DNA of 64,000 nucleotides from an uncultured Clostridia bacterium (lineage in GTDB: Bacteria; Bacillota; Clostridia; Christensenellales; UBA1242), in assembly GCA_934777435.1 (NCBI GenBank), contig CAKVNK010000001.1:247203-311202 (forward strand), read 5' to 3'. This document shows positions 29,601-62,350 of the stretch, piece after piece. Each line of letters opens with the position of its first letter. The first letter of the stretch is position 1. The position numbers were made by a program, and so were the translations under genes. Below the pieces are notes generated by a model. It was not told the origin of the DNA, did not search any database, and worked only from the letters and a program-made list of their open reading frames with translations.

Positions 29601-30257
29601 ACCTTCACCTTTGATTCAAGCATGATACCAAGTGAATCACTTGAAGACGAAAACGATATGCAAACAAATGTTGAATCAGTTGAAGATTTCACCCCAGAAG
29701 AAGAACTTTATGGCGGACTTAAAAACGGCGATATTGTAACTTGTGGCGGTGTTATAACGGAAATTAAAACCATACAAACCAAAACTGGCAGCAAAATGGC
29801 ATTCTTAACCATTGAAGATTTAACTGGCAGTTTTGATGCAATCTTGTTCAACAAATCTTACGATAAGTTTAAAGACGATATTCAAAAAGATAGTTTGGTT
29901 GCAATCAAAGGCCGTTTCTCTGTGCGTGACGGCAAACGCCCTTCAATCACAGTTGACAACATTGAACCTTTAACTGAAACAACAGACGAGAAACAAGAAA
30001 CCACCCCAACCGAACAAGAAACCGAAGTGGAAATTATAAAGCCTAAAAAATTGTGTTTGCGCTATAATATTAATGATGGCGTTTTGCACCAAGCCGTTAA
30101 AAATATTTTAAAAAGTTATGCTGGCATTGATTCAGTGTTTATTAAAGATACTGGGTCAAATCAAGCCTTCAAACTTAAAGAAGGTGTTATGGTGCGTGAA
30201 AGTTTAATATTTGAACTTGAAACCATTTTGAACAAAGATGATATAGTTGTTATTTAA
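26625..30257 (+). CDS. dnaE: DNA polymerase III alpha subunit (DnaE type)
   Basis: 1210 aa. PHP N-terminus FVHLHLHTEFSLLDGA, palm/fingers motifs, and an OB fold. The start overlaps the whiA stop (ATGA). Confidence 0.95.
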   Translation: MMKPFVHLHLHTEFSLLDGAARIKKVVKLAKEYGMPAIAITDHGNMYGVITFYDACKDAGIKPIIGCEFYVAEDLNVKTGKQKNSHLIILAKNQQGYKNLSMLNTIAFRDGFYYKPRIDYKTLEKYSEGLVCLSACLAGDIPKLILQEQFEKAEQLIMWFKNLFKDDFYLEIQHNGLPEQEIVNAKLREYSKKFGIKLVATNDVHYLFKEDAEMQDVLMCVAMQKFVDDPDRLKFPTDELYFKTYDQMLEGLPQDEEALDTTVEIAEKCNVEFEFGKYLFPHYTPEGGYNEKVGNTPKEYIMNLIDKGIKQKYGEYTDVIRDRIATEMGVIEKQGFIEYFLIVWDYINAARNMGISVGPGRGSGAGSLVAYAIGITDIDPLKFDLFFERFLNSERVTAPDFDIDFQDNRRDEVIAYVRRKYGDDHIARIVTFGTMKAKNAIKDVGRVLRVPYNICDKITKNIPMYKSPILPKAFGFHIPKEGDKDFGTVYAVPELIEMYNTDPQVKKVVDIAMKVEDFPRQSSMHACGVIIGADVLDRHVPLARNQEEITTQYQGADMERLGHLKMDFLGLRNLTDIVETLKLIEKNHGVKIDFKKSNYDDPNVFKLISTGNTEGIFQIESAGFQKFMKELQPTCIEDIVAAVSLYRPGPMDSIPQYVHNKHHPEDTKYEHPILAPILNVTYGCIVYQEQVMKICQEMGGFTLGQADAIRKAMGKKKLDQMLKWKEAFLHGREAMTDDHGKYSAAIDGAVKRGVPEEVALSIWNKMETFASYAFNKSHAAAYSLITYQTAYLKTYYLPEFITATLNNRITNIDKLKYYIAYAKREKIQVLPPDINLSETYFSTNGKTIRFGLAALKNVGIGVIDEIIAERTENGPYKDLADFIWRSNSQALNKRCIESLIKTGAFDCFGRPRSQLMAVYSIMVDRAIERKKKSMNGQMDLFGDIIEDTNLIEENEYPKINEYVNTVKLQYEREISGTYLSGHPLDGFMDTIKTFTFDSSMIPSESLEDENDMQTNVESVEDFTPEEELYGGLKNGDIVTCGGVITEIKTIQTKTGSKMAFLTIEDLTGSFDAILFNKSYDKFKDDIQKDSLVAIKGRFSVRDGKRPSITVDNIEPLTETTDEKQETTPTEQETEVEIIKPKKLCLRYNINDGVLHQAVKNILKSYAGIDSVFIKDTGSNQAFKLKEGVMVRESLIFELETILNKDDIVVI

Positions 30258-37808: not shown

Positions 37809-40800
37809 TTATTCAACATCGCCAGATTTTGCTTCTGATTCTGCTTCTTCAGTTGTTGCTGTTGCTTCAACTTCTTCTACTTCTTCTTTAGCAACTTCTT
37901 TGTTTGCACCTTTTGTTGATTTTGCTTTAACTTGATTGTTGGCTTTTGTTTTGCCACCTTTGCCTTTACCTGTGAAGGCGAAGAACAAGATAACGCCAGC
38001 AAGAACAACTAATGACAATACGATAAGCACAACGCCAACTACTGTATCATTGCTCTTTTCAACATCAGATTCAGTTTTAACAGTAAACTTAATTTCTTTT
38101 GTTGCTGGGTTTGTGTTGCTGTCGGTTGCTTTGATCACCAATTTATATTCACCAGTTGCACTGATTGAATATGTTTTGGTGTTAGTACCTGTTGAACTTG
38201 TTGACATAACGCTGTCTCCATTGTAAAGTTCCACAGTTAAAGAATCCCAACTGATGTCTTTTAATTCACCATTTTTGTCCTTATCTTGTAAAACAAGGTT
38301 GGTGTTGTAAGTTTTAACATCTTTACCGTTTGTGATTGTGACCTCAAGTTTTCTACCACCATTTGTTGATGTTGAAGTTTTAACCAATTTGATTGTGTAT
38401 TCAATAGCGGTTTTGCCATCGTATACAATTTCTTTAGCCAAATCATCTTCATGGTCGATTGTGATTACTGGTGGAACATTGTCACCCACTTTGATTGTAA
38501 ATGACTTTGTGATTGTGCTGTAAGCAGTTATTGCAGTATATTCAACTTTATAGTCACCTGTCAATGTTTCATTTGTTGTAAATTGCCATACAGTTGTGCC
38601 ATTAACAATGTTCTTTTTTACTGTTTGAGTGTCACCTTTGAAAGTAACTTTCAATTCAACTTTTGCTTTAACATCACCTTGAGATGCACTTAAATCTGGA
38701 AGTGTTACAACGCTACCCAAAGGTGCGTATGAATAATCACTTTCGTTTAATGTTTCGTTCCATTTAAGTTCTGGACGAGTTACAGTGATTGTAAATATTT
38801 GAGGTTCTGCTGTGTATGTTACACCAGCTGACTCATAACTTGCTGTAAATGTGATTTTATATTCACCTTGCTCCTTGAAGATGAAACTTGTTACATCATC
38901 AGCGGATTGCCAATCTTTTCCACCATCTTCAACTGTGTAGTCGATTGTTGCTGATTCTGTTAAGTTTTGTGACAAATCATTTGACCACAAAACTGCATCA
39001 AAGTTAACACGCATACCTGTTTCGCCAGTGATTGTGCTTGCACTTGAAGATTTAATATCGTCACCAGTTGCTGACACTTTCAAAATAGGGTCGCTTGCTA
39101 AAGTTGATTCAAATGTGAAGTACATATAGGTTGTGTTACCAGCATCATCTGTGGCTGTGTAAATAACGTGATATGTGCCTACTTTATCTGCTTTGATTGA
39201 GCCACCATAAATATATGATAAGCCTGAAATATTGTTTTTAAAGTTTTTCCCTGTAGGAGATTGATAATCTAAACCTATAATATCGTTAACTGGGCTGTCA
39301 ACATAGTATAAAACGCTCATACTCAAAGATTTATCGTCATCTTCAAAACTTACGTCTGGTAAACGAACAGTTGTGCCTTGTTTAACTGTAAGTGCAGTTA
39401 AATCTACATCACCCAAATCGTGTGCGTTTACAACGTGTGCTGTAGGTGCTGCAACATCGGTCATATCTTTCAAGTTGAGTTTTTTAGTAGCAAGTGCGAT
39501 ATTGCTGTCGTCATCAATAGACATAGCAACAATGTGTGCTTCTCTAAGATAACTTGCTTCATAACCTTTTAATTCAACATTATAGTTATTTTTATTCTTT
39601 TGTTCAGCATAAGCAAAACCATTGTATCTATCTTTCATATAGTTAACGAAAGCGTCAGTTTCAATTAAGTTTTTGCTACCAAAGTAACTGCCTTCTGGCA
39701 ATGCTTCTTTTGCTGCTCTGTAAGCATTTTCAACATCTTGTGCCAAAGTTGTTGCAGTAGATTTTGCTGTGTAGTAATAGAACACTGCAGTTTTAAGGCG
39801 TTTATCAACATTAGTTGTTGATTCGCCACGTTTTGTTTCATTTGCATTGATGTTAACTGTGAATTTACCATCGCTTGCAACTGAATAATTATCTTTAATG
39901 TTGTTAATTTCAACTGTGTGTTCTACAGATGTAGTTGGGGTTCTCAAATCAGTTGACAAAATTTCAAAGGTGTACATTGTTGTGTTTGAAACATACAAGT
40001 AACCTGTTTGTTTTGTGATGTCTTTTGCATAAACTTGGTAACCCAATGTATATTCACCAGCCATTTCTGATTGGTTTTCTGTGTTAAATTTGAATTTAAC
40101 TGCTTTGTTTGGTTTGCCAATGTTTGCATCTCCTGACACATTCATTTGGCTTGAATATGCTTCATCTGAAGAAATATTATATGCTTCTTTATCTTTTAAC
40201 ATAATGTTATCAAGATAATAGATTGTGTTTGTACGTGAACTTTGAATATAACGAACAAAGATAAAATCTTTATAAGATGTTACGTTATCTTTAGCATAGA
40301 TTGCTGGGAAGTAAAGTTCATTATAACCAAGTTGTGATTTGAATTCTGATGCAACAGTTGTGTCAATTTTATCTTCATCAACTGGCAATTTTGTTTCAGC
40401 ATCAACTTCATAGTTATAAGCCATGAATACTTCTGGGTTTGTGTTATCTTTAACGCCGTCAATAGTAACTTTGATTGTTTTTGTGTTGCCGTAAGCATCT
40501 TCAATGGTATATTCAACATACCAGTCACCTAACATATCTGTTGTGTATGAAGCCAAATTAAATGTTGTTTTGGTCATATCAAATTTAAAAGTGTTGTTTG
40601 ATAAAGTTGTTGAAAGGTTGCCCTTGCTGATAACGATTGATTTAACATTGTGTTCAATGTTATCTTTTGTTTTGCTGTTAACAACAACATCTGGCAATTT
40701 AATATCTTTTTGACCCAATTCAACGCTTGGCATTGTAGGGATATTGATTGTTAAATCGCTACTTGTAGGTGCTACAAAGTCTTTTTTAACTTCAACTGTG

Positions 40801-41618
40801 AAAGACTTTTTAGGTGGATTGTTCCCATAAGCATATGTGTATTCAATGGTATATTTACCTTCTTTTGTTGGATACAAATAATACTTATTTGTTTCAGCAT
40901 CTTTTTTAACGATATTGCTTGTTGATAAGTCAAGTTCTGTGCCGTAAGCGTCAAAAACTTTAAGGGTTACACCTGTGCTTGAAACATATGCACCTGTATC
41001 CTTATTTTTAACGTTTGCTGTTGGCAATTCGATTTTATCAGCATCACTTGTTGACAATTTAACTGTTTCTGGTAAAAGAGTTTTTAAACCCGCCTTTGCT
41101 GAACCTTCACGTGCTGCAAAGTCAAGTTCATAACTAACATTTTCAACTGTTACAGAATAGGTGTTAGAATATAAAAGTTCGCCACCTTCTTCCATAATGT
41201 ACAAAATGTCGTATTTGCCGTTATTGAGTGTTTTGATTTCAAGAAATTCATCACTATCAACATTAATTTTTGCAAAATAATCAGCATCTCTTTCGTTTGT
41301 TTCTTGACCAGCTTCTGCCCCAACTTTATAGTCGTGTGAAGTGAAACTTGGGTCAACCACGCGGATTGTATATTTGGCAGTATCTTGCCATGAGTTGCCA
41401 GATTTAAGAAGTGGCACACGCAATGATTGGTTGCCATTAGCATCAACAAATGTTGCACGTGGCATCTTAACTGCTTTGATGGCCATATTGTAGTTAGTTT
41501 TGGCCTTGTTTAAAGCCGCATAAGTACGAACATTTGGTGCAAATGTGAACAATAAACTTGCAAACGCAAATGCCATAAAGCATAATATAACCTTAAAATA
41601 CTTCTTAATTGATTTCAT
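37809..41618 (-). CDS. Large surface protein (1269 aa) with a signal peptide, tandem Ig-like beta domains, and a C-terminal TM anchor plus charged tail
   Basis: Signal-like MKSIKKYFKVILCFMAFAFASLL..TYA. Recurrent domain-end motifs (DAYGNTKTIKVTI, TATDDAGNTTYMYFTF, KATDSNTNPATKEIKFTV). C-terminal VVGVVLIVLSLVVLAGVILFFAF followed by a K/E-rich tail. AGGAGA RBS. Confidence 0.85.
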   Translation of the reverse strand: MKSIKKYFKVILCFMAFAFASLLFTFAPNVRTYAALNKAKTNYNMAIKAVKMPRATFVDANGNQSLRVPLLKSGNSWQDTAKYTIRVVDPSFTSHDYKVGAEAGQETNERDADYFAKINVDSDEFLEIKTLNNGKYDILYIMEEGGELLYSNTYSVTVENVSYELDFAAREGSAKAGLKTLLPETVKLSTSDADKIELPTANVKNKDTGAYVSSTGVTLKVFDAYGTELDLSTSNIVKKDAETNKYYLYPTKEGKYTIEYTYAYGNNPPKKSFTVEVKKDFVAPTSSDLTINIPTMPSVELGQKDIKLPDVVVNSKTKDNIEHNVKSIVISKGNLSTTLSNNTFKFDMTKTTFNLASYTTDMLGDWYVEYTIEDAYGNTKTIKVTIDGVKDNTNPEVFMAYNYEVDAETKLPVDEDKIDTTVASEFKSQLGYNELYFPAIYAKDNVTSYKDFIFVRYIQSSRTNTIYYLDNIMLKDKEAYNISSDEAYSSQMNVSGDANIGKPNKAVKFKFNTENQSEMAGEYTLGYQVYAKDITKQTGYLYVSNTTMYTFEILSTDLRTPTTSVEHTVEINNIKDNYSVASDGKFTVNINANETKRGESTTNVDKRLKTAVFYYYTAKSTATTLAQDVENAYRAAKEALPEGSYFGSKNLIETDAFVNYMKDRYNGFAYAEQKNKNNYNVELKGYEASYLREAHIVAMSIDDDSNIALATKKLNLKDMTDVAAPTAHVVNAHDLGDVDLTALTVKQGTTVRLPDVSFEDDDKSLSMSVLYYVDSPVNDIIGLDYQSPTGKNFKNNISGLSYIYGGSIKADKVGTYHVIYTATDDAGNTTYMYFTFESTLASDPILKVSATGDDIKSSSASTITGETGMRVNFDAVLWSNDLSQNLTESATIDYTVEDGGKDWQSADDVTSFIFKEQGEYKITFTASYESAGVTYTAEPQIFTITVTRPELKWNETLNESDYSYAPLGSVVTLPDLSASQGDVKAKVELKVTFKGDTQTVKKNIVNGTTVWQFTTNETLTGDYKVEYTAITAYSTITKSFTIKVGDNVPPVITIDHEDDLAKEIVYDGKTAIEYTIKLVKTSTSTNGGRKLEVTITNGKDVKTYNTNLVLQDKDKNGELKDISWDSLTVELYNGDSVMSTSSTGTNTKTYSISATGEYKLVIKATDSNTNPATKEIKFTVKTESDVEKSNDTVVGVVLIVLSLVVLAGVILFFAFTGKGKGGKTKANNQVKAKSTKGANKEVAKEEVEEVEATATTEEAESEAKSGDVE

Positions 41619-42436: not shown

Positions 42437-42706
42437 CTATGTTAATGCGTCAACCAGCAAAACGATATGTTTTTTGTTTGCTTTGTAGATAGTTTCAAAG
42501 TCTGATGGAGATTCCAACTCACAATCAAACTTAACAGCACACTCTATGGTTGCACACAAATATTCTTTGGCTTTGATGAAAGCATCAACAACAGTTTCAC
42601 CTTCTGTAACAATGCCCAAATCTGGAATTGAAACAGTAAACCAACCTGTGTTTGTGCCTTTTTCATCGTCCTTATACATAATTACTGGGTAAACTAAATC
42701 CTTCAT
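42437..42706 (-). CDS. HicB-like (UPF0150) antitoxin-fold protein without a DNA-binding tail
   Basis: LVYPVIMYKDDE..WFTVSIPDLGIVTEGETVVDAFIKAKEYL...ESPS follows the HicB N-domain pattern (YPv...dg.y.v.vPDlpgc.t.G.t.eEA..na.eal). Confidence 0.6.
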   Translation of the reverse strand: MKDLVYPVIMYKDDEKGTNTGWFTVSIPDLGIVTEGETVVDAFIKAKEYLCATIECAVKFDCELESPSDFETIYKANKKHIVLLVDALT

Positions 42707-43504: not shown

Positions 43505-43529
43505 AAAAAGGTAACCCTTACGAGTTACC
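43505..43529 (-). terminator. rpoC terminator
   Basis: Minus strand: GGTAAC-tcgtaagg-GTTACC followed by T5, 23 nt after the rpoC stop. Confidence 0.75.
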
Positions 43530-43551
43530 TTTTGCATAAAATTTCTATGTT

Positions 43552-46500
43552 TTATTCTTCATCATCAATGTCGTCAAATTTCATGTCAACATTGTCGTTT
43601 GTGAAGTTCAAACTATCTTCTTTAACTTGTTTTGGAAGAACGTTGCGGTATGCTGGAGCACCAGTACCAGCTGGAATCATCTTACCGATGATAATGTTTT
43701 CTTTCAAACCTGTTAAGTGGTCTACTTTACCTTTCAAAGCGGCTTCGGTTAAAACGTTGCTTGATTCTTGGAAAGATGCAGCAGACAAGAAGCTTTCAGT
43801 TGTCAAACTTGCTTTTGTGATACCTTGAAGTTCACGTTTAGCAGTTGCAGGAACGCCACCTTCAGCCAAAGCTTTTTGGTTAGCTTGTTCGTAGATACGA
43901 ATATCAACAATATCGCCTGGCAATAAGTCTGTATCACCTGCATTTTCGATTTTAACTTTACGGAGCATTTGACGAATAATAATTTCCAAGTGTTTTGCGT
44001 TAATAGCAACAGATTGTGATTTATAAACTTCAAGCACTTCGTTAAGCAAATATTCTTGAACGGCTTTCACACCACGTGTACGGAGCACATCTTTAGGGTT
44101 CAATGGACCTTCTGTAAGTGCTGTACCTGGGGTGATTACATCGCCTTGTTTAACTTTGATTGTTGAACCAAATGGAAGAATATAACTTTCTTCTGTTTGA
44201 CCTTTAACAACAACTTCAAAGCGTTTGTCAATTTGATTGATGCTTACTTTACCACCGATATCGCTGATAACAGCAGCACCTTTAGGGTTACGTGCTTCGA
44301 AAATTTCTTCAACACGAGGCAAACCAGAAGTAATATCGTTAGATGCAGTACCACCGCTGTGGAAGGTACGAAGCACCAACTGTGTACCAGGTTCACCGAT
44401 TGATTGAGCAGCGATAACACCAACTGCTTCACCAACGTGAACAAGGTCGTTTGTAGACATATCACGGCCGTAGCATTTTGCACATACGCCGTTTTTTGCT
44501 TTACATGTAAGCAAACTGCGGATAGTAACTTTTTCAACACCAGCATTGACGATAACTTTTGCAAGTTCGTCACTGATGTAACAGTCAGCACCAACAATTT
44601 CTTTCTTTGTTTTAGGGTCGATAACTGGCGATGCTGTATAACGACCAACAATACGTGCTTCCAATGTTTCAACAACAGTGCCGTTTTGTTTGATTTCGGT
44701 AACGTCAATACCTTTAACTGTTTCACCAAGGTTGCCAAAGCAATCTTCTTCAGTGATTGTGGTATCTTGTGCAATATCAACCAAACGACGTGTTAAGTAA
44801 CCAGAGTCAGCAGTTTTAAGTGCGGTATCCATAAGTTGTTTACGGCTACCACGTGCTGCCATGTAATATTCAAGTGGGTTCAAGCCACGGCGGAAGTTAG
44901 ATTTAACTGGCACGTCACTAACTGCACCAGATGCAACCGCTGTGTTACCAATAACACCACAAAGTTGTTTCAAACTGTCTTCACCACCACGGGCTTTAGA
45001 TGTAATAATAACTTTGATTGAGTTAAATTTATCCAAATGACCAGATGTAACTTTAATAACATCGTTAACTGCTTTATCCCAAACAGCCATATTTTTGTTA
45101 TATTTATCAGCATAACTCATCAAACCTTGCATATACATATCGTCATTTGCTTGAACGATTTTGTCTGCTTCATCAATGATTTGTTGACGTTCTTCAGCTT
45201 CCTTCATATCAAAGATTGAAAGTGAAACACTTGAAAGTGTGCTGTATTTATAACCCATATTTTTAATATCATCAATCATGGTTACAGTTGTGTTTGTGCC
45301 ATGTTTACGATAACAAGTTTCAATCAACTTGCCATATGTGCCTTTTTTAACTTCATCTTCAATTTCAAGGCGAAGTGCATTTTCTTTTGTATCACGAGTA
45401 ACAAAACCAAGGTCTTGTGGAATAATACTGTTGAAAATGACTTTACCAAGGGTTGTTTCGATACGGCCTGTAACCTTTTCACCATTGAAATCAACGGTAC
45501 GGCGTAAATTAATTTTTGCTTGAAGGCTAAGTTTGCCGTTTTCATGTGCAAGTTGTGCTTCATCAGCACTTGCAAATGTCATACCTTCACCCAACGCACC
45601 ATCACGTACGGCTGTAAGGTAGTAGTTACCCAAAATCATATCTTGGCTAGGCACCATATTAGGGCTACCATCACTTGGTTTAAGCACGTTATTTGATGCT
45701 AACAAAAGCATACGGGCTTCTGTTCTTGCTTCAACTGAAAGTGGAACGTGCATACTCATTTGGTCACCGTCGAAGTCGGCGTTAAAGCCACCACACGCCA
45801 AAGGTGGAAGACGGATTGCCTTACCTTCTACAAGGATAGGTTCAAATGCTTGCACTGAAAGTTTGTGAAGTGTAGGCGCACGGTTCAAAAGAACTGGGTG
45901 ACCTTCAACAACTTCTTGCAAAATATCGTAAACGATTGGACGCTCTTGTTCAATCATACGTGTTGCTTTTTTAAGGTTGTTTGTTGCGTTCATTTCCAAC
46001 AAACGTTTAATAATAAATGGACGGAACAATTCAAGAGCCATCATTTTTGGCAAACCGCATTGATAAATTTTAAGTTCTGGGCCAACAACAATAACTGAAC
46101 GGCCAGAATAGTCAACACGTTTACCAAGCAAATTTTGACGGAAACGACCATGTTTACCCTTTAAACTTGCGGTTAACGATTTCAAATCTCTTTGACGGCT
46201 ACCTTGAACAGCACGACCACGTTTACCGTTATCAAACAAAGCGTCAACCGCTTCTTGTAACATACGTTTTTCGTTACGTACAATAATGTCAGGTGCACCA
46301 AGTTCAATCAATTTTTTCAAACGATTGTTACGGTTGATAACACGGCGGTATAAATCATTCAAGTCACTTGCAGCAAATTTGCCACCATCAATTTGAACTA
46401 ATGGACGCAAATCTGGTGGAATAACTGGAATAACATCCAAAATCATCCAACTTGGTTTGTTGCCTGATTTAATAAACGCTTCAATAACTTCCAACTTTTT

Positions 46501-47124
46501 GGTTGCTTTAAGTTTACGTTGACCTTTTGTTGTGTGCATGATTTCAGTAAGTTCATCACGCTCTTTTTCAAGGTCAATATTGTTCAACAATTCTTTAATT
46601 GCTTCAGCACCCATACCAGCACGGAAACCATTAGGACCATATTTTTCAATGGCTTCACGGTATTCTTTATCACGGATAACTTGTTTGTATGCAAATTCTG
46701 TATTTTTAGGGTCAAGAACAACATAACTTACATAATACAAAACTTCGTCCAAAAGTTTTGGGCTCATATCAAGTGTGATACCGATACGGCTTGGCACGCC
46801 TTTAAAGAACCAAATATGGCTTACTGGGCAAGCAAGTTCAATGTGACCCATACGTTCACGGCGAACTTTACTGCGTGTTACTTCAACGCCACATTTATCA
46901 CAAACAACGCCTTTATAACGCACACGTTTATACTTACCGCAATGACACTCCCAGTCCTTTTTAGGTCCAAAAATACGTTCACAGAAAAGGCCGTCTTTTT
47001 CAGGCTTCTGTGTACGATAATTGATTGTTTCAGGTTTTGTAACTTCGCCACGTGACCAAGACCTAATCATTTCTGGTGAAGCGATTGCCACTCTGATTGA
47101 GTCAAAATTGTTTAATTCAAACAT
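43552..47124 (-). CDS. rpoC: DNA-directed RNA polymerase subunit beta'
   Basis: 1190 aa with a zinc motif ([23 protein letters not shown]), NADFDGDQM at the catalytic centre, and trigger-loop regions. Confidence 0.97.
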
Positions 47125-47156
47125 CTAATTTTTTCTCCTATTCTATTCTCAACGGA

Positions 47157-47384
47157 TTAATCAACTGATACAATTTCAGTTTGCATTGCAATGTTTGCAA
47201 TACGATTGCTTCTTTTATCCTTTTTGCCTGACATTTTTTTTAAATAGTCCATAATTTCACACCAAGTGGCATATGTTACCATTTCGCCTTGCAAATCGGC
47301 ATAATGGCTATGCTTTTCGCAGAGCAACTTATAGTCGCCCCTTGAAAAGTTTACCATAACCAAAGTATCTTTTGTTTTATCCAT
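47157..47384 (-). CDS. Small hypothetical protein (75 aa) encoded between rpoB and rpoC
   Basis: AGGAG RBS 5 nt upstream of the ATG. The ORF ends 32 nt before the rpoC start. No family recognised. Confidence 0.6.
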   Translation of the reverse strand: MDKTKDTLVMVNFSRGDYKLLCEKHSHYADLQGEMVTYATWCEIMDYLKKMSGKKDKRSNRIANIAMQTEIVSVD

Positions 47385-47459
47385 TGTTACTCCTATATAT
47401 CTAAACTGTTAAATTTTGTTGTTAACCTATTTAATAATTAACTAAATTATTGTTATTGA

Positions 47460-47494
47460 TTATTCATCAAGGTCATCTAACAATTCAAACTGAC
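47460..47494 (-). repeat. Degenerate duplicate of the rpoB 3' terminus
   Basis: About 26 of 33 nt are identical to 47544-47578. It still encodes ..FELLDDLDE-stop, compared with the authentic ..SELFDDLDE-stop, and is displaced 84 nt downstream. Confidence 0.6.
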
Positions 47495-47543
47495 AGTATT
47501 TTATTTTCTAAAATCCTGAACTCGCTGAATTGTGTTAAGTTAA

Positions 47544-50500
47544 TTATTCGTCTAAGTCGTCAAACAATTCAGACTCGTCAAATGCGGTTGCATTGACATC
47601 ATTTTCATAATTCTTTTGAATATCGTCAAATTCAAGTGTAATGTCTTCAAGGGCTTGTTTATTAACAGGTTCAACTGTTGCAACTTCTTCCCCTTCTTCA
47701 CTCACTTCATTGATTGTAAGTTCGTGATTATCTGCTGTTAAAATCTTAACATCTAAACACAAACCTTGCATTTCTTTAACCAAAACTTTAAATGATTCAG
47801 GCATACCAGGTTCTGGGATAGGTTCGCCTTTAACAATCGCTTCATAAGTTTTGATACGTCCTTCAACGTCATCGGATTTAATTGTAAGCATTTCTTGCAA
47901 CAATCTTGATGCACCATATGCTTCCAATGCCCAAACTTCCATTTCACCAAAACGTTGACCACCAAGTTGGCTACGACCACCAAGAGGTTGTTGTGTGATA
48001 AGTGCATAAGTACCAATGCCACGTGCGTGGATTTTATCGTCAACCATGTGGTCAAGTTTTAACATATACATTACACCAACTGTTGTTTTGTTTTCAAATG
48101 GCAAGCCTGTACGGCCATCATAAAGTTGTGTTTTGCCGTCTTCTGGCAAATTGTTTTCTCTAAGCAATGCTTTAATATCTTCTTCTGTTGCACCATCAAA
48201 TGCTGGTGTTGCAACTTTCCAGTCAAGATGTTTTGCAGCCCAACCCAAGTGAACTTCCAATAATTGGCTCAAGTTCATACGTGAAGGGATACCCAATGGG
48301 TTAAGCAAAATATCAACTGTTTCGCCATTTGGCATATAAGGCATATCGCACTCTGGAAGAACAACTGATACAACACCTTTGTTACCATAACGACCAGCAA
48401 GTTTATCACCTACTTGGAGAACACGTTTTTGTGCGATATAAACTTTTACGCACATATTAACGCCAGCATCAAGTTCGTCTTTATTTTTACGTGATAAGAT
48501 TTCAACGCCAACAACAACGCCTTCTTCGCCGTGTTTAACTTTTAATGAAGTGTTTTTAACTTCTTTTGTCTTTTCACCAAAGATTGCTTTTAAAAGCCTT
48601 TCTTCAGGGGTTAAGTCAGTTTCACCCTTAGGGGTTACTTTACCAACCAATATATCGCCTGGGCGAACTTCTGTACCGATACGAACAATACCATTTTCGT
48701 CCAAATTCTTTAATGCATCTTCACCAACACCAGCAATATCACGTGTGATTTCTTCATCACCGAGTTTTGTTGTGCGGGCTTCTGTTTTAACTTGTTGAAT
48801 ACTGATAGATGTGTATGCATCTTCACGAACTATACGTTGGTTAATCAAAATCGCATCTTCAAAGTTGTAACCTTCCCAGTTCATAAATGCAACTGTCATA
48901 TTCTTACCAAGGGCAACTTCACCTTTATCAGTTGAAGCACCATCAGCAAGCACATCACCGGCTTTAACCTTTTCACCTTTCTTAACAATAGGTTTTTGGT
49001 TGAAGCATGCTTTTTCGTTTGTACGTTCAAACTTACGGAGTTTGTGGTTTACAATGCTACCATCTGCGTATTCCATTGTGATGTAATCAGCAGAAACATA
49101 TTTACATACACCATCTTGTTCAGCAAGGATAAGTGCGCCAGAGTCAACAGCAATTTTATGTTCAACACCAGTACCAACAATAGGGCTGTCACATTTGATA
49201 AGTGGAACAGCTTGACATTGCATGTTTGAACCCATCAATGCACGGTTACCTGGGCTGTGTTCAACAAACGGAATAAGGTTAGCGCCAATAGACAAACATT
49301 GTTTTGGGCTTAATTCGAACAAGTCCACCATTGAACTATCAACACGTTCTGCTTGTCCGTTATGACGGCACTCAATAATGCCAGCAGCGATTGTTTTATC
49401 TTCATTTAAGTCTACTGTTGCAGGTGCAATATAGTGTCCACGTTCTTCATCAGCCATTAAGAACACAATATCGTCAGTAACTTTTCTTGTTTTAGGGTCG
49501 ATCTTTTTAAATGGAGTTTCAATAAATCCATATTTATTTACGCGTGCGTACGCAGCGATAGATGTCATCAAACCGATAGGTTGACCTTCTGGTGTTTCAA
49601 CCAAACAGATACGACCATAATGGCTTGGGTTAATATCACGCACTTCAACTGTTGCACGTTCCTTCTTCACACCGCCTGGGCCAAATGAACTTAAACGGCG
49701 TTTATGCCTTAAACTTGCTGCTGGGTTGATTTGATCCATCAATGCTGAAAGTTGGCTTGTTGCCATAAATTCTTTAAACACTTTGTTGATATGACGAGCG
49801 TTTACAATTTGGCTTGGCGTGATGTCTGTTAAATCACGGCTTTGCAAACTTTCACGCACTTGTGCTTGAAGTTTTGTCATACCACGACGGAATTCGTCAC
49901 GGAGCAATTCACCACATGTTGCAACACGACGCATTGACAAGTTATCAATTTCGTCTGTTTCGCCTAAACCGTCAATAAGGTTCAAGTGATAACTGATTGT
50001 TGCAATCATATCGTCCAAAGTTACTTGGAAATCTTCAAGTTTGTGAGCATTTGCTTTGATTGCTGCTTTCAAACCTTCTTCATCACCTTTGTGTGCTTTC
50101 ATAATTTCTTGAAGCAATGGAAGGTAAACAAGTTCAGTGATACCAAATTCTGCTGGGTCAAGTTTTGCATATGCTTTAAGGTCAACACGTTGGTTACCAA
50201 CAACACGAACAACTTTATCTTCAACCAAAACATCAACTGAATTGATACCAGCGTTTTGAATTGCAACTGCTGTGTCATGGTCAATATATTCGCCTTGGCC
50301 TACAAACATTTTTTTGCCAAGCTTAACGTCTTTTGCTGCAATTTGGTCTGTAATACGGTTAGCAAGTGATAATTTTTTGTTAACTTTAAAACGACCAACT
50401 TTTTCAAGATTGTAGTGTTGTTGATTGAAGAAACGGTCGTTAATATAACTCAAAGTATTGTCTGGGTTAGGAATTTCACCTGGACGTGTACGTCTACCAA

Positions 50501-51218
50501 ATTCAATAAGTGCATCTTCTTGAGTGATTTGTGGTTCTTTTTCAAGAGTGTTAACAATGTATGGGTGATGACCATAAATCTCAAGCAATTCTTCGTTTGT
50601 GTAACCAAAACATTTAAGCAAAACACCTGCACTCATTTTAAACTTACGTTCAACAATAACACGCAATGTGTCGCCTGCAACCTGTTCGGTTTGAACCCAC
50701 ATACCATAACTTGGTTGAATTGCACCATTATAGTCCATACGTCCATATTTGTTGATTTCGCCACCAAACACAACGCCAGGAGATTTGATTAATTGGTTAA
50801 GAACAACCCTTTCAACGCCGTTGCAAATAAAGCCGGCATCTTTGCTCATGTAAGGGATGTCGCCCATAAACACTTCCTGATCCATAATTTGGCCAGTTTC
50901 TTTAACCAACAAACGAACGTTCACTTTAAGTGGCACTGTGTAACTCATTTGTTTGGTTTTGCACTCGTTCCAAGAATATTTAGGTGTGCGGTCGATTGAA
51001 TAACCTAAAAAAGACAACTCTGCTTTGTTAGAGTAGTCTATGATAGGGTTGTATTCGTTCAACACTTCACCAATGCCCTCATTTAAGAATCTTTCATAAC
51101 TCTCTTTTGCAATGCCAAGCAAATCAGGCATAACATAAGGGACTTCCTTTTTGGCAAAACTCATACGTTCAGCCTTGCCTTGTTTTAGTTTTTTGATGTT
51201 CAGTGTGTTTGAATTCAT
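47544..51218 (-). CDS. rpoB: DNA-directed RNA polymerase subunit beta
   Basis: 1224 aa. Conserved rifampicin-cluster region (..SQLSALMDQINPAASLRHKRRLS..GPGG) and the C-terminal flap/clamp. Confidence 0.97.
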   Translation of the reverse strand: MNSNTLNIKKLKQGKAERMSFAKKEVPYVMPDLLGIAKESYERFLNEGIGEVLNEYNPIIDYSNKAELSFLGYSIDRTPKYSWNECKTKQMSYTVPLKVNVRLLVKETGQIMDQEVFMGDIPYMSKDAGFICNGVERVVLNQLIKSPGVVFGGEINKYGRMDYNGAIQPSYGMWVQTEQVAGDTLRVIVERKFKMSAGVLLKCFGYTNEELLEIYGHHPYIVNTLEKEPQITQEDALIEFGRRTRPGEIPNPDNTLSYINDRFFNQQHYNLEKVGRFKVNKKLSLANRITDQIAAKDVKLGKKMFVGQGEYIDHDTAVAIQNAGINSVDVLVEDKVVRVVGNQRVDLKAYAKLDPAEFGITELVYLPLLQEIMKAHKGDEEGLKAAIKANAHKLEDFQVTLDDMIATISYHLNLIDGLGETDEIDNLSMRRVATCGELLRDEFRRGMTKLQAQVRESLQSRDLTDITPSQIVNARHINKVFKEFMATSQLSALMDQINPAASLRHKRRLSSFGPGGVKKERATVEVRDINPSHYGRICLVETPEGQPIGLMTSIAAYARVNKYGFIETPFKKIDPKTRKVTDDIVFLMADEERGHYIAPATVDLNEDKTIAAGIIECRHNGQAERVDSSMVDLFELSPKQCLSIGANLIPFVEHSPGNRALMGSNMQCQAVPLIKCDSPIVGTGVEHKIAVDSGALILAEQDGVCKYVSADYITMEYADGSIVNHKLRKFERTNEKACFNQKPIVKKGEKVKAGDVLADGASTDKGEVALGKNMTVAFMNWEGYNFEDAILINQRIVREDAYTSISIQQVKTEARTTKLGDEEITRDIAGVGEDALKNLDENGIVRIGTEVRPGDILVGKVTPKGETDLTPEERLLKAIFGEKTKEVKNTSLKVKHGEEGVVVGVEILSRKNKDELDAGVNMCVKVYIAQKRVLQVGDKLAGRYGNKGVVSVVLPECDMPYMPNGETVDILLNPLGIPSRMNLSQLLEVHLGWAAKHLDWKVATPAFDGATEEDIKALLRENNLPEDGKTQLYDGRTGLPFENKTTVGVMYMLKLDHMVDDKIHARGIGTYALITQQPLGGRSQLGGQRFGEMEVWALEAYGASRLLQEMLTIKSDDVEGRIKTYEAIVKGEPIPEPGMPESFKVLVKEMQGLCLDVKILTADNHELTINEVSEEGEEVATVEPVNKQALEDITLEFDDIQKNYENDVNATAFDESELFDDLDE

Positions 51219-51313
51219 CCATTAACTCCTTATTCAGTTGTATACTCGCAAAACCTTTATACAAAGTATAAATGGGCATAATCCACCCTAGCGAGATTTA
51301 TTCATACTGAGCG

Positions 51314-51342
51314 ATTTTATCATAATAAACAAGTTATGTCAA
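51314..51342 (-). promoter_or_regulatory. rpoB promoter TTGACA-17-TAAAAT
   Basis: Minus strand: TTGACA (51342-51337), 17 nt, TAAAAT (51319-51314). This gives a leader of about 90 nt before the AAGGAG RBS. Confidence 0.6.
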
Positions 51343-51439
51343 TAGATTTTAATTAAAATTTGCACAATTTTTAGATAAAATTATTGCCAATTTAGCAAAG
51401 TTTAAACATATGTTTATGATTATTTTTGTGTTTTTGCAA

Positions 51440-51467
51440 TAAAAAAGAGAGCCTTATTTAACTCTCT
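51440..51467 (-). terminator. Terminator of the Cys-rich micro-protein gene
   Basis: Minus strand: AGAGAG-10nt-CTCTCT followed by T6. Confidence 0.65.
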
Positions 51468-51544
51468 TTCATTAAACCACTGTAAATTTTTGCTTTTGTA
51501 TTATTGCCAATATTAGGCAAACTAACTTGTTGGTGTGCTAATTC

Positions 51545-51748
51545 CTAGCAACCTTGTGGGCCTTTGTTGCCACAACCGCAACCACAAAGCAACAACAAGA
51601 TGATAACAAGCAAGCAAGGGTCAATACGGCAACCACAGTTGCAAAGCAATAAGATAAGGATGATAAGCCAAGCAAAATCGCCACAACCGCCATGATTCAT
51701 CCCTTCGTTGCAACCGCAATCGTTGCCACCAAAGAATTTGTTGAACAT
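51545..51748 (-). CDS. Cys/Gly-rich small hydrophobic protein (67 aa)
   Basis: Perfect AGGAGG RBS. The sequence is MFNKFFGGNDCGCNEGMNHGGCGDFAWLIILILLLCNCGCRIDPCLLVIILLLLCGCGCGNKGPQGC, with two hydrophobic cores bracketed by CGC motifs. Confidence 0.7.
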   Translation of the reverse strand: MFNKFFGGNDCGCNEGMNHGGCGDFAWLIILILLLCNCGCRIDPCLLVIILLLLCGCGCGNKGPQGC

Positions 51749-51839
51749 AGTTCCTCCTAAAAGTGTTTTGTTATGTATTTACAAAGAATTTCATATGTGC
51801 CTTAATTTCCTTTGTATATCACATATTACGTTGACACGT

Positions 51840-51878
51840 AAAAAAAAGTTACAGATAATAAAATTTCCGTAACTTTTT
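51840..51878. terminator. Bidirectional terminator after the GLUG-repeat gene
   Basis: AGTTACAGA-10nt-TCCGTAACT (9 bp, one G-U pair) flanked by A8 and T5. Confidence 0.7.
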
Positions 51879-51957
51879 GCATCAAAATTTTTGTTAAATT
51901 CTATATCCACAACAATTTAAGCACATATTAACAAGTATCACGCTTTTCCTATAATAT

Positions 51958-53499
51958 TTACAATTGTGCTATTGTTGCACAATTTACATTAGAAAAGTTA
52001 AAACCAGTGTTTACGTAATAATTTTTAGTTAAATATGGATTTACAGAATCGTACCATGTCGATCCGCTACAATTAAAAATTGGATTAGAATACGATTTGC
52101 TTCCTGCCGATGAATTGTTTTTAATGCTAGAAGAAGAATCAACGACGCTTAAACATTTTTTAATATTTACACAGCCCTCACTATACTTGGCCACAACACC
52201 ATATTCTGCAGATCTGCCAAGTATTCCCCCTATATTTGCACCGAAAATTTGATCGCTTTTACGATAAGTTTGATCCACAACAACCATTTTTGATATAGAA
52301 ACACAATCACTGATTGTAACTTTTGGACTAACAGAATCATACAGTCTATAACCACCACCAATTAATGCCACATAAATCTCACAAACGGCTTCACCAACAA
52401 TACCCCCAGCGTTTGTGTAACACCCACCATTGCCTGTTATATTTATGGTGGAATGTGTTTCAACACAAGAGATGTTAACATCAGTTTGATTTTTAGATGC
52501 TGACAATAACGCATAAACACACCCTATCAAACCGCCAGCAGATGTATTATTTCCATATTCAAAACGTATTGAACCTGAACCATTTGATGTTATCTCGTTT
52601 GTATTTGTTACACTAATTGAAGCATTTGTTAATTTTATATTTGACACCGTACATACACCAGAAAGTGAACCGGCCAAACAGCCAATATCTTTCATTCCAT
52701 CTATTGCCGGATATGGTAGTGAAGTTGTGCTTGTTATTGACACTCCGTCCAACCACAGATTTTTTATATTTCCATCTACAACATTACCAAACAAACCCAA
52801 TGGTTTGTATAAATTTCTATATCCAGATATTGTGTTGCCTTGAAGAATTGCAACTGATGACACAAGAATTTCAGTTAATTTTAGATTCTTTATCACATGA
52901 TTATTGCCGTCAAATGTGCCTGAAAAAACCTTCTTCACAATCGGATTGGTATTTGTATGCATTGCCACAACATATGATCCTATCGGATCCCACGCAACCG
53001 ATTGCAAATCAATATCACTTGTTAATTTTACCGTTGAACCCGAATAAGAATCCCCTTTGTTAACATTATCTCTAAATGTTTCCAAATCTGATTTACTATT
53101 AATAGTCACAGTGCCGGCAGTTGCAGCATACACTACATCGTTAACTTTTGTCAAACTTTTACCTATTGCTGAAAAATAGCATGTTTGTCCGCCAACAGAA
53201 ATCTCAAACATAACCTTATTTGAAGTTGTTTTTACCAAATTGCCTAAACTATAATTATTGTTTGGAAATACAATTTTCAGTTTTTTATTTAATTTTTCAG
53301 CGGTGTTATCGTTTAGCGTTACATTATCAATCAACCCAACTTTAAGCACCTCACCTGATTCCATTTTTACAAATTGCACACAATTATATTTAGGAAACAC
53401 AAACAAGCCAAATCCCACTATGGCTAAGAACAACAAACAAAAAACCAGTAAGAACATGCTTACCAGTTTTTTATATTTTGCCCCATTTTGTGTTATCAT
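51958..53499 (-). CDS. Membrane-anchored surface protein with GLUG-type (beta-helix) repeats
   Basis: Recurrent GL.G motifs (LGLFGNV, IGCLAGSL, AGGLIGCV, AGGIVGEA, IGGILGRS). N-terminal TM anchor. The start is moved to ATG 53499 (MITQNGAKYKK..) from the ORF-track start at 53559, on the basis of a consensus leaderless promoter. Confidence 0.75.
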   Translation of the reverse strand: MITQNGAKYKKLVSMFLLVFCLLFLAIVGFGLFVFPKYNCVQFVKMESGEVLKVGLIDNVTLNDNTAEKLNKKLKIVFPNNNYSLGNLVKTTSNKVMFEISVGGQTCYFSAIGKSLTKVNDVVYAATAGTVTINSKSDLETFRDNVNKGDSYSGSTVKLTSDIDLQSVAWDPIGSYVVAMHTNTNPIVKKVFSGTFDGNNHVIKNLKLTEILVSSVAILQGNTISGYRNLYKPLGLFGNVVDGNIKNLWLDGVSITSTTSLPYPAIDGMKDIGCLAGSLSGVCTVSNIKLTNASISVTNTNEITSNGSGSIRFEYGNNTSAGGLIGCVYALLSASKNQTDVNISCVETHSTINITGNGGCYTNAGGIVGEAVCEIYVALIGGGYRLYDSVSPKVTISDCVSISKMVVVDQTYRKSDQIFGANIGGILGRSAEYGVVAKYSEGCVNIKKCLSVVDSSSSIKNNSSAGSKSYSNPIFNCSGSTWYDSVNPYLTKNYYVNTGFNFSNVNCATIAQL

Positions 53500-53505
53500 T
53501 AATAT

Positions 53506-53535
53506 ATTATAACTTTTCAACTTTTGATTTGTCAA
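53506..53535 (-). promoter_or_regulatory. Consensus promoter TTGACA-18-TATAAT placed 6 nt upstream of the ATG (leaderless geometry)
   Basis: Minus strand: TTGACA (53535-53530), 18 nt, TATAAT (53511-53506), ATATTA, then ATG (53499). Confidence 0.6.
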
Positions 53536-53586
53536 ACAATACAAAATCCTATGTTGCAATCTTTTTTGTTGTTTATTGTTATATTA

Positions 53587-54282
53587 TCAATCCAATCGGC
53601 TATCTTCCCTTAAATGTTTAGCATAATCTTGCCAAGCCTTAGACTTTTGTTGTTTAATGTTGACCACCTTACCATTAACTTCTTTAATGAAAGGGTTAAC
53701 ATAATTTGTGTTATCGTCTGGCTCCCAATAATCGTGTTTACGTTGCAAATAACCAGATAAAATTTTTTCGGTAAAAAGCCTAAAATGGTTTAAATCGGTT
53801 GAAACACAAAGCCCATATGGGTGATATAAGCCTGAACATAAATGGGTGTGACCAAAAAAGTTACACATATTCTTTTTGCCGTCTTTAATTTGATGAACCA
53901 AATTTACCTTTCTACCACAAGTTTCAACAATTAAACTGCGGTGCACTTCTTTGATACCTTTGCTTAAACAATATTGTTTAAATTTTTCAAAACTGTTGTC
54001 AAAAAAGTATTTAACCACCCTATCTTCATTATTGCCCATAATAAGCACTATGCCGGCTTTGATTTCTTTAACAAGTTCTAACCCATTTTGCCACTCATAT
54101 GTGTTTGGTCCGTCACAGTCCAGCAAATCGCCAACCACATAAATGGTGTCGCCCTTATGTGCGGTTTTGTTAAAATTGTTAACAATAAATTTGTCATACT
54201 GCTTTATGTTTTTAAACGGGCGATTATCCGTTTGCATTGTCAGTGTATCGCTAAAATGTATATCCGCAGTAAAGAATTTCAT
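53587..54282 (-). CDS. Calcineurin-like metallophosphoesterase
   Basis: FTADIHFSD, VVGDLLD, GNNEDR and GHTH motifs in canonical order. AGGGG RBS. Confidence 0.85.
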   Translation of the reverse strand: MKFFTADIHFSDTLTMQTDNRPFKNIKQYDKFIVNNFNKTAHKGDTIYVVGDLLDCDGPNTYEWQNGLELVKEIKAGIVLIMGNNEDRVVKYFFDNSFEKFKQYCLSKGIKEVHRSLIVETCGRKVNLVHQIKDGKKNMCNFFGHTHLCSGLYHPYGLCVSTDLNHFRLFTEKILSGYLQRKHDYWEPDDNTNYVNPFIKEVNGKVVNIKQQKSKAWQDYAKHLREDSRLD

Positions 54283-54370
54283 TTGTACCCCTATTTCTTT
54301 TATGATTTTGTGTTGCGTTGAATTTAACTATTTTATTACCTTTTAAACTTAAATGTTTGGCACGATTAAA

Positions 54371-55450
54371 TTAATAACTGAAAGATTGCAACTTATCCAC
54401 AATCATTTGTTTAAGTTGAACAATGTTTTTGCCTGTTTTTGCACCGATGTAGCATGTATCATATGGATATGGTTTAAGTGATTGAATTTCAGCATTTGTT
54501 AATTTATCTGCTTTGTTGTAAACCAAAATTACACGATGTGGGTCAATTTCAAGACGTTTAAATTCACGTTCTACAACTGCAATTTGGTCATAACGGTGTG
54601 GGTCGCTTGCATCAACAACCAGCAAAAGCACGTTAGCGTCCAATGTTTCTTCCAATGTTGCAGAGAAAGCATACATAAGCTCATGTGGAAGATTGCTTAC
54701 AAAACCAACAGTATCAATCAACACATATTCTGTGCCGTTATCCCAAACTTTTTTGGTAAGCACATCAAGAGTTGCAAAAAGCCTATCGTCCGCATATGTG
54801 CCAGCCTTTGCAATGGCATTCATCAATGTTGATTTACCAGCGTTTGTATACCCAACCAACGCAACACTTTTCATACGAGATAAACGTTGTTTACGTTGTG
54901 TTTGACGATTTTTTTGTATATCCTTAATTTCTTTTTCAAGGCGTAAAATGTCTTCTTGAATTTTGCGTTTGCTTAAATCTTTTAAACTTTCACCTGCACC
55001 ACGCCCTGCCATACGTTCTTGGTTAAGTTGCAAGCAACTTAATCTTGGCAAACTATATTTAAGTTGTGCCAATTCGACTTGCAATTTACCTTCGCCTGAT
55101 TTTGCACGACCAGCAAAAATATCCAAAATAAGCATTGTGCGGTCGATTGTTTTAGCATCAAAAATTTCACTCAAATTACGCAGTTGACTGCCTGAAAGTG
55201 GACAGTCCAAAATAATCACAGTAGCACCTAATTCTTTTGCCTCATCGCGAATCTCTTCTGCCTTACCAATACCAAAATATGTGCGTGCGTTCAATTCTTT
55301 TGGTTGAAAAATGTTGCATTTAACCACTTCGTACAATGCACTTTCAGTTAAAAGTTCCAACTCTTTTGCCCTATACCCGGTGTTGCTCATATCAACATAT
55401 GGGCAAACAAGATAGGCCTTTTCTTTTATAACTTCATTATTAACAAACAT
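54371..55450 (-). CDS. hflX: GTPase HflX (short form)
   Basis: HflX N-domain followed by G1 GYTNAGKST, ATLD, G3 DTVGF and G4 NKADK. AAGGAGA RBS. Confidence 0.9.
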   Translation of the reverse strand: MFVNNEVIKEKAYLVCPYVDMSNTGYRAKELELLTESALYEVVKCNIFQPKELNARTYFGIGKAEEIRDEAKELGATVIILDCPLSGSQLRNLSEIFDAKTIDRTMLILDIFAGRAKSGEGKLQVELAQLKYSLPRLSCLQLNQERMAGRGAGESLKDLSKRKIQEDILRLEKEIKDIQKNRQTQRKQRLSRMKSVALVGYTNAGKSTLMNAIAKAGTYADDRLFATLDVLTKKVWDNGTEYVLIDTVGFVSNLPHELMYAFSATLEETLDANVLLLVVDASDPHRYDQIAVVEREFKRLEIDPHRVILVYNKADKLTNAEIQSLKPYPYDTCYIGAKTGKNIVQLKQMIVDKLQSFSY

Positions 55451-61881: not shown

Positions 61882-61958
61882 GGGGGATTAGCTCAGTTGG
61901 CTAGAGCACTTGCCTTGCAAGCAAGGGGTCATCGGTTCGAATCCGATATTCTCCACCA
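61882..61958 (+). tRNA. tRNA-Ala (anticodon UGC), CCA encoded
   Basis: Manual cloverleaf: acceptor GGGGGAT/ATTCTCC with the G3:U70 alanine identity pair, anticodon loop CTTGCAA, T-arm ATCGG-TTCGAAT-CCGAT, and ACCA at the 3' end. Confidence 0.92.
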
Positions 61959-62117
61959 AAAATATTTTGAGATGTGAAATTTCAAAATTCACCGCCCTTA
62001 ACAATAAAGGGTTTGCAAAGGGGAAACAATGTTGCCACTTTGTAGAGGAGCAAGCGCCTAACAAGCGGACGTTTGCGATAACAAGAAGCAAACTCGCCAA
62101 AAGGCGAATTGCGACGA

Positions 62118-62194
62118 AGAGATGTAGCTCAGCAGGTTAGAGCACCACCCTGATAAGGTGGGGGTCGGTGGTTCGAGTCCACTCATCTCTACCA
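62118..62194 (+). tRNA. tRNA-Ile (anticodon GAU), CCA encoded
   Basis: Manual cloverleaf: acceptor AGAGATG/CATCTCT, D-arm TAGCTCAGCAGGTTAGAGCA, anticodon stem CCACC/GGTGG with loop CTGATAA, T-arm GGTGG-TTCGAGT-CCACT, and ACCA. Confidence 0.9.
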
Positions 62195-62199
62195 GAAGC

Positions 62200-62228
62200 A
62201 AGTGTTTGACATCGTCAAGCACTTTTTT
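62200..62228 (+). terminator. tRNA operon terminator
   Basis: AAGTGTTTGAC-atc-GTCAAGCACTT (11 bp, one G-U pair) followed by T6. Confidence 0.8.
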
Positions 62229-62350
62229 CTTTTATGAAACAAGTGCTAAAAATTTATTGTTAAAAACAAGATTTTAGCAAAGCAAAATATGTCATCTTTC
62301 AAAATCACAAACTTCGTAAAAGACAAAATATTATTAAAAAATAATAAAAA

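Follow-up and report, generated by a model that had tools for sequence, protein, structure and literature searches.

A small orphan reading frame kept between rpoB and rpoC in a clade of uncultured gut Clostridia

The stretch of DNA analyzed here (64,000 nucleotides, hereafter referred to as the window) carries the genes for the beta and beta' subunits of RNA polymerase on its minus strand, separated by a gap of 419 nt in which a small orphan open reading frame (ORF) is found. The features of this junction and of its two ends are as follows:

47157..47384, minus strand: orphan ORF of 75 codons plus TAA, with an ATG start (ORF list and translation)
47394..47390, minus strand: Shine-Dalgarno AGGAG of the ORF, 5 nt 5' of its ATG (sequence)
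47544..51218, minus strand: rpoB, beta subunit, 1224 aa, the upstream gene (ORF list)
43552..47124, minus strand: rpoC, beta' subunit, 1190 aa, the downstream gene (ORF list)
47139..47135, minus strand: AGGAG belonging to rpoC itself (sequence)
51342..51314, minus strand: promoter-like TTGACA-17-TAAAAT with an extended TG (consensus scan, 11/12)
43533..43506, minus strand: terminator-like hairpin with a 12-bp stem, 19 nt past the rpoC stop (consensus scan)
47460..47543, minus strand: 84-nt repeat unit, consisting of a hairpin and a copy of the rpoB end, present as one unit in the window (sequence)

An earlier reading of the same DNA, made from the sequence only, had already reported the 419-nt gap with its 75-aa ORF, and our translation is identical to the one given there. 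We likewise recovered the AGGAG at ideal spacing, which proved to be kept in all members of the family described below, the distance of 32 nt from the ORF stop to the rpoC ATG, and the duplicated rpoB 3' end beside the ORF, where the last 27-29 nt of rpoB (47572..47544), stop codon included, are repeated at 47488..47460. The rpoB orthologs contain the Pfam RNA_pol_Rpb2 domains.

The promoter-like site lies ~95 nt 5' of rpoB and is likely the start of a transcript running through rpoB, the ORF and rpoC, and the terminator-like hairpin past rpoC is likely its end. In the 419-nt gap itself, the consensus scan detected no terminator-like sites and only weak promoter-like sites (9/12 at best), in agreement with the earlier view that nothing convincing of either kind surrounds the ORF and that it should be co-transcribed with the polymerase genes. 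With a promoter-like site before rpoB, a terminator-like site past rpoC and nothing convincing between them, the simplest reading of these consensus scans is that the three genes are very likely carried on one mRNA. An Rfam scan of the rpoB-rpoC spacer returned no match. The length of the ORF alone is only mildly improbable, as an ATG ORF of at least 75 aa was present in 3-5% of Markov-shuffled, composition-matched 419-nt sequences; its significance comes from its relatives, which have kept its position and its Shine-Dalgarno sequence, differ by in-frame indels and show dN/dS below 1. In composition and codon usage, the ORF looks like an average native gene (GC = 34.6%; CAI = 0.62 versus a window mean of 0.61), and it is without the codon bias of highly expressed genes. 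No paralog of the ORF was found elsewhere in the 64-kb window.

The wider neighborhood has several features of its own. In the window, rpoB is not preceded by rplJ-rplL (upstream positions 51219-53559 and 53587-55450, minus strand); upstream of it are hflX, a weak metallophosphoesterase-like gene and the gene for a 533-aa protein, then a 739-nt gap. This 533-aa protein has no Pfam match and was found by tblastn in L091 and not in L092, L095, L083 or L084 (L-numbers denote individual genomes or contigs). On the other side, an 89-aa HicB-like antitoxin is encoded at 42437-42706 on the minus strand (Pfam E = 3e-5, below the gathering score), with no obvious HicA partner called beside it, and this protein is 100% identical between the window and L091, where its neighbors are 82-93% identical. 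Two very large ORFs encode 1269 aa (37809-41618, minus strand) and 1210 aa (26625-30257, plus strand). The 1269-aa protein shows a sub-threshold match to an archaeal-type pilin N-terminal domain near its C-terminus only and is 62-84% identical among relatives, and an additional Flg_new-repeat protein is present at the large-ORF locus in L091 and L092. A tRNA-Ala(TGC) and tRNA-Ile(GAT) pair (61882-62194, plus strand) is of the kind typical of rRNA spacers, and no rRNA was detected in the window; an Rfam match to the antisense RNA HPnc0260 (62156-62298, minus strand; 60 bits versus a gathering score of 59) overlaps tRNA-Ile and is probably spurious.

We searched for relatives of the ORF in several collections. 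A word-indexed search of 5.8 billion proteins returned two of them, with 99% and 72% identity, both on short contigs that start with the rpoB 3' end and finish with the rpoC 5' end. When one genome per GTDB species was scanned with the lineage-specific beta C-terminus, the only close relative was L003, a MAG of an uncultured member of the Clostridia recovered from a Hadza gut sample, whose beta C-terminus is 97% identical; the genomes ranked after it reached 75% identity at most, in the conserved part of the beta query only. L003 has a 73-aa ORF in the same position, only 40% identical to that of the window. A profile search of 1.84 billion representative proteins yielded only six genuine clusters, with three longer matches (P0008-P0010) discarded as low-complexity repeat proteins, and a profile search of the 5.8 billion proteins yielded ten clusters at 90% identity, all of 71-79 aa and none named by any source. 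Genomic context was readable for nine of these ten clusters (17 loci), and the ORF was always located between rpoB and rpoC, flanked by a 1224-aa rpoB and a 1190-aa rpoC. Neither profile search placed the family at another locus or on a mobile element. The sequence-only reading had raised both outcomes, homologs that share the rpoB-rpoC position and related genomes with the ORF at unrelated loci; homologs exist, every readable context is the rpoB-rpoC junction, and the latter situation did not occur in any of the 17 loci. All members come from a single genus-level clade of uncultured gut Clostridia with a low GC content (~33%).

Among 68 other genomes with a readable junction, mainly Bacillota and Actinomycetota, rpoB and rpoC were direct neighbors separated by ~0-290 nt, and inspection of the 11 larger gaps (123-290 nt) in these other lineages revealed no convincing ORF. 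Literature searches for genes or ORFs at the rpoB-rpoC junction yielded nothing relevant. A protein-pattern scan of the JGI metagenomes, which used degenerate patterns and is a weak negative, confirmed no relative among the matches listed. Sampling of junctions on contigs with an identical HicB-like neighbor brought nothing new, as most of these contigs end inside rpoC. Many metagenome assemblies break 1-2 kb from the rpoB-ORF-rpoC junction or inside rpoC, including L001, L002, L087-L089, L093, L094 and most of the HicB-neighbor contigs. Such breaks fit a mixture of strains in which a hypervariable spacer lies between nearly identical flanks.

The gene has been lost at least once. A DNA-pattern scan of the JGI metagenomes for the clade-specific rpoB 3' end, unbiased as to the ORF, recovered one contig, L090 (JGI co-assembly SAMEA104315431__coassemble_390), in which the beta C-terminus is 99.5% and the beta' N-terminus 100% identical to the window proteins. 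Its spacer of 279 nt (8346-8626 of the reverse complement) contains two hairpin repeat units and no ORF, and the alignment shows that L090 keeps only a degenerate remnant of the ORF 3' tail together with the pre-rpoC spacer. Thus, as read over 9.3 kb of the L090 contig, the ORF is dispensable in at least one natural lineage, although a copy may lie elsewhere in that genome. On its rpoB side, L090 is the nearest relative of the window (97.5% nucleotide identity), whereas its rpoC side is 91.8% identical to the window and closest to L089, which suggests that the junction is a recombination mosaic or possibly a chimeric co-assembly.

The repeat next to the ORF varies in copy number among the same genomes. 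In the window, the unit is an imperfect hairpin (47532..47481) plus the rpoB-end copy, and in general it combines a hairpin of ~50-57 nt with the final 27 nt of rpoB, stop included. The copies were counted as follows, with a degenerate variant of the repeat in L089:

0 copies: L002
1 copy: window, L001, L003, L086, L087, L088, L091, L095
2 copies: L083, L085, L090
4.4 copies: L084 (5599-5965)

The hairpin occurs once in the window and is therefore not a dispersed element there. Two of its stem positions show compensatory changes, and its 5' arm, CAATTCAG, can pair with CTGAATTG in either the real rpoB end or the downstream copy; the repeat could be an element of mRNA processing or stability, or an attenuator. 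In L003, the spacer (3540-3600) contains a further hairpin of 11-12 bp, TTGGTGGCTTGA...TCAAGCCATCAA, located 3' of the repeat unit and 5' of the ORF; the window has no such hairpin, and the terminator scan did not call it.

Comparison of the family members revealed the signature of a translated sequence. The dN/dS values were 0.13-0.44 in independent pairs (Nei-Gojobori), with a significant excess of synonymous changes (e.g., P = 2e-7 for L088/L095 and P = 1e-4 for window/L002 in Fisher's test). Constraint was stronger in the folded core than in the tail, and indels among members were in frame. Every member has AGGAG followed by 5-6 nt and ATG, while the remaining upstream spacer has diverged or changed in length. 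Coding-type conservation and a translation signal, both of which the sequence-only reading had singled out as informative, are thus present in the relatives. The rate of change is nevertheless far from that of the flanks: across the clade, the small protein is 29-72% identical, versus 97-100% for the beta C-terminus (last 200 aa), 97.5-100% for the beta' N-terminus and 95.5-99.3% for rpoB as a whole (amino acid identity). Identities to the window on two long contigs, L091 and L095, place the ORF among its neighbors:

ORF: 63% in L091, 36% in L095
rpoB: 99% in L091, 95.5% in L095
hflX: 95% in L091, 86% in L095
144-aa neighbor of unknown function: 53% in L091, 34% in L095

The ORF is among the fastest-evolving genes of the neighborhood and is not uniquely fast. 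We are highly confident that the ORF is a genuine protein-coding gene with a fixed place at the rpoB-rpoC locus. The substitution patterns indicate that it is selectively maintained, and its ribosome-binding site is conserved.

The protein was modeled with AlphaFold2 as a monomer from alignments of four and then eight sequences, and the same core was obtained both times, with residues ~10-50 at pLDDT above 90. The predicted core (residues 8-53) is compact, spans ~45 residues and consists of a strand (8-10), two short helices (15-23 and 27-31), a second strand (35-37) and a long helix from 38 to at least 53, with strand 35-37 pairing intramolecularly with the first strand. The last ~20 residues (54-75) are of low confidence and predicted to be disordered. 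Nine residues are invariant (M1, D17, Y18, L20, L21, G33, M45, L48, K50) and four are nearly so (V9, Y28, V36, W41). The core is not basic (pI about 6-9). In most members, the tail is rich in Lys/Arg; its final residues form a short acidic-hydrophobic motif such as E-x-V-x-x-D, with the variants TEIVSVD, EPVVALD, EEAVLLD and EPVLTD.

We scanned Pfam, PHROGs, NCBIfam and PADLOC with the window protein and all eight aligned members and obtained only scattered single-member noise (E ≥ 0.017), with nothing below E = 0.04 in PHROGs; hmmscan of the eight members against Pfam-A and NCBIfam, at E up to 10, gave no RNA polymerase subunit family. A scan of IMG/VR viral contigs with degenerate patterns confirmed no relative among the matches listed. 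Both AlphaFold2 models were compared with the PDB by Foldseek, and no match had E below 1 and none was an epsilon or Gp2 structure; the second model was also compared with the viral structures of BFVD, with nothing significant. The best Foldseek match, MDM2/SWIB (probability 0.23, TM 0.4), and a ZAD domain (probability 0.12) were taken as noise. The best matches of a PDB sequence profile search had E = 0.26-0.28 only, Arc among them. In the sense that nothing described matches it, the protein family is new.

We tentatively interpret the product as a dispensable accessory factor of RNA polymerase, an association that we infer from gene position only. Under this interpretation, it would be made together with beta and beta', maybe in comparable amounts, would bind the core enzyme or help beta and beta' assemble, and would resemble omega, delta and epsilon, the small non-essential subunits of other Firmicutes. 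The gene, which has a strong, conserved Shine-Dalgarno sequence of its own, lies between rpoB and rpoC, and the positional argument for such a role is reasonable because no gene occupies the rpoB-rpoC gap of the other genomes read. It is weakened, however, by the fast pace at which the protein evolves next to an invariant enzyme, and the loss in L090 weakens it further. An identity of 29-72% beside beta and beta' ends that are 97-100% identical would not be expected of a protein that binds an invariant surface, and the narrow clade, the absence of high-expression codon bias and the loss in L090 also count against an accessory role. Moreover, no likeness to delta, epsilon, omega or a known RNA polymerase-binding protein was found, either in sequence (Pfam, NCBIfam) or in fold (Foldseek, PDB). 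A more specific version, which we consider unlikely, makes the protein a candidate lineage-specific polymerase subunit or regulator that would dock where the beta C-terminus meets the beta' N-terminus, on the clamp and RNA-exit side; its fast evolution and loss would then reflect an arms race with phage polymerase inhibitors, and the hairpin repeat might adjust how strongly it is expressed compared with beta and beta'. Protection from phage polymerase inhibitors is a role once proposed for the epsilon subunit.

It is possible, if somewhat unlikely, that the gene has a function unrelated to transcription (e.g., immunity, anti-phage defense or another strain-level accessory function) and resides at a junction that would offer strong constitutive expression and conserved flanks easing allele exchange by recombination. 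Its rate, which is like that of the fastest unknown accessory genes nearby, would suit such a passenger, as would its loss in L090 and the mosaic junction left there. The same applies to the whole spacer as a hotspot of variation, in which the tandem repeat ranges from 0 to 4.4 copies, and to the many assemblies that break near the junction into short contigs. Against this, the family was never seen at another locus or on a mobile element, its members have no PADLOC or PHROGs match and none in viral contigs among the matches listed, and the relationships among the ORFs broadly track those of rpoB, suggesting vertical descent.

Quite unlikely, in our view, is an Arc-like ribbon-helix-helix DNA-binding protein, i.e., a small dimeric repressor or regulator that possibly autoregulates the rpoBC operon. 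The predicted order of strand, helix, a turn with the invariant Gly33 and helix may fit a ribbon-helix-helix domain of ~45 residues, and the region YAxxQGxxVxYxTWCxIMxxLKK aligns without gaps to VAEENGRSVNSEIYQRVMESFKK of Arc (the turn and last helix; Arc residues 25-47), where hydrophobic residues are spaced alike along the second helix. Arc was returned at E = 0.28 by the PDB sequence profile search and by hhalign with a probability of 21.5% and a pairwise E-value of 0.001 (with sequences of Arc, Mnt and CopG entered by hand), but the match covers 23 columns only and is not significant, and Mnt (0.2%) and CopG (0.1%) did not match. No Pfam ribbon-helix-helix family was hit by any member at E up to 10, and no ribbon-helix-helix structure was found by Foldseek. 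The would-be DNA-reading strand is variable and partly hydrophobic (M/Y/L/T/F at position 10, N/D/L/H at position 12), the core lacks a basic character, AlphaFold2 pairs the strand within the monomer, and no conserved operator-like repeat was seen. With a weak Arc match, nil for Mnt and CopG, no Pfam model, a variable and partly hydrophobic strand face and a core that is not basic, membership was not assigned. Compared with Arc and Mnt of phage P22, the protein is alike in the size of its core (~45-50 residues, here within a protein of 71-79 aa), in the invariant glycine of the turn and, in the predicted monomer, possibly in the strand-helix-turn-helix order; it differs in a first helix that is ~3-4 residues longer and kinked, and in a strand without conserved polar DNA-reading residues.

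The second option of the sequence-only reading was that one insertion event brought in the ORF as cargo and left the duplicated rpoB 3' end; such cargo, or a remnant of the event, is now very unlikely. The copy of the last 27-29 nt of rpoB does lie just upstream of the ORF, and degenerate rpoB-end-like sequence (TTTAGATA...) precedes the Shine-Dalgarno sequence in most members. The duplication, however, is part of a tandem repeat of in-register 84-nt units, of which close relatives have 0, 1, 2 or 4.4 copies, and repeat and ORF vary independently, since L002 has the ORF without the repeat and L090 has two repeats without the ORF; this independence largely refutes the cargo reading. In addition, the hairpin is not dispersed within the window, the ORF has a native composition and no similarity to proteins of phages or mobile elements in PHROGs or among the IMG/VR matches listed, and all 17 contexts are chromosomal rpoB-rpoC junctions. 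The earlier interpretation is partly supported: the homologs, their coding conservation, the Shine-Dalgarno sequence and the locus agree with it, the promoter and terminator scans are consistent with co-transcription, and the insertion cargo is not supported. Extremely unlikely is a non-functional protein, either a chance ORF or a translated spacer whose peptide sequence is unimportant, because, although such ORFs arise in 3-5% of random 419-nt sequences of the same composition and this one is dispensable in L090 and highly divergent, its 71-79 codons stay open in ten clusters despite up to 70% amino acid divergence, its dN/dS values fall significantly below 1 in more than one independent pair, and it has nine invariant and four nearly invariant residues and a confident predicted fold.

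A selectively maintained gene wedged between rpoB and rpoC, as the comparisons here indicate, is an unusual arrangement. If the putative binding to RNA polymerase is true, the protein would be a previously undescribed small subunit or regulator of the Clostridia, in which epsilon is absent. The gene would exemplify the recruitment of an orphan into the operon that is most conserved in the cell. If its function is unrelated to transcription, it would still be a clear case of an accessory gene for which an essential operon serves both as expression platform and as recombination hotspot. The narrow clade and the dispensability limit its general importance.

Among known systems, the closest in kind to the accessory factor that we tentatively favor are the small auxiliary subunits of Firmicute polymerases. 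Epsilon (RpoY/YkzG), at ~70 aa, is similar in size to the ORF product, and epsilon, delta (RpoE) and omega (RpoZ) are likewise small, lineage-restricted and dispensable, and are made at levels like those of the core enzyme. The ORF lies inside the operon of the core subunits; to our knowledge, the epsilon, delta and omega genes are not located between rpoB and rpoC. The ORF is also found in one genus-level clade rather than across a class or phylum, and binding to the polymerase is putative in its case. Neither an RpoY profile match nor a fold match to T7 Gp2 or solved epsilon (Foldseek, PDB) was obtained, and there was no match to RNA_pol_Rpb6 or HARE-HTH in Pfam or NCBIfam for omega and delta; delta carries an acidic tail, whereas that of the ORF product is basic and not poly-acidic. 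Clostridia are without the epsilon subunit of Bacilli, the function of epsilon is still called enigmatic, and the other small subunits of Firmicute RNA polymerase are described as auxiliary (bioRxiv 10.1101/2021.06.06.447298).

The rpoB-rpoC junction itself has been rearranged in other lineages. In Helicobacter and Wolbachia, rpoB and rpoC are fused genes, evidence that extra sequence can be accommodated where the beta C-terminus and the beta' N-terminus adjoin. The arrangement in the window is alike in being a lineage-specific rearrangement of this junction; unlike the fusion, it involves a separate gene with its own stop, Shine-Dalgarno sequence and start, and no translational fusion. The general kind is already known from omega, delta and epsilon, i.e., a small lineage-specific accessory protein encoded with the machine that it may serve.
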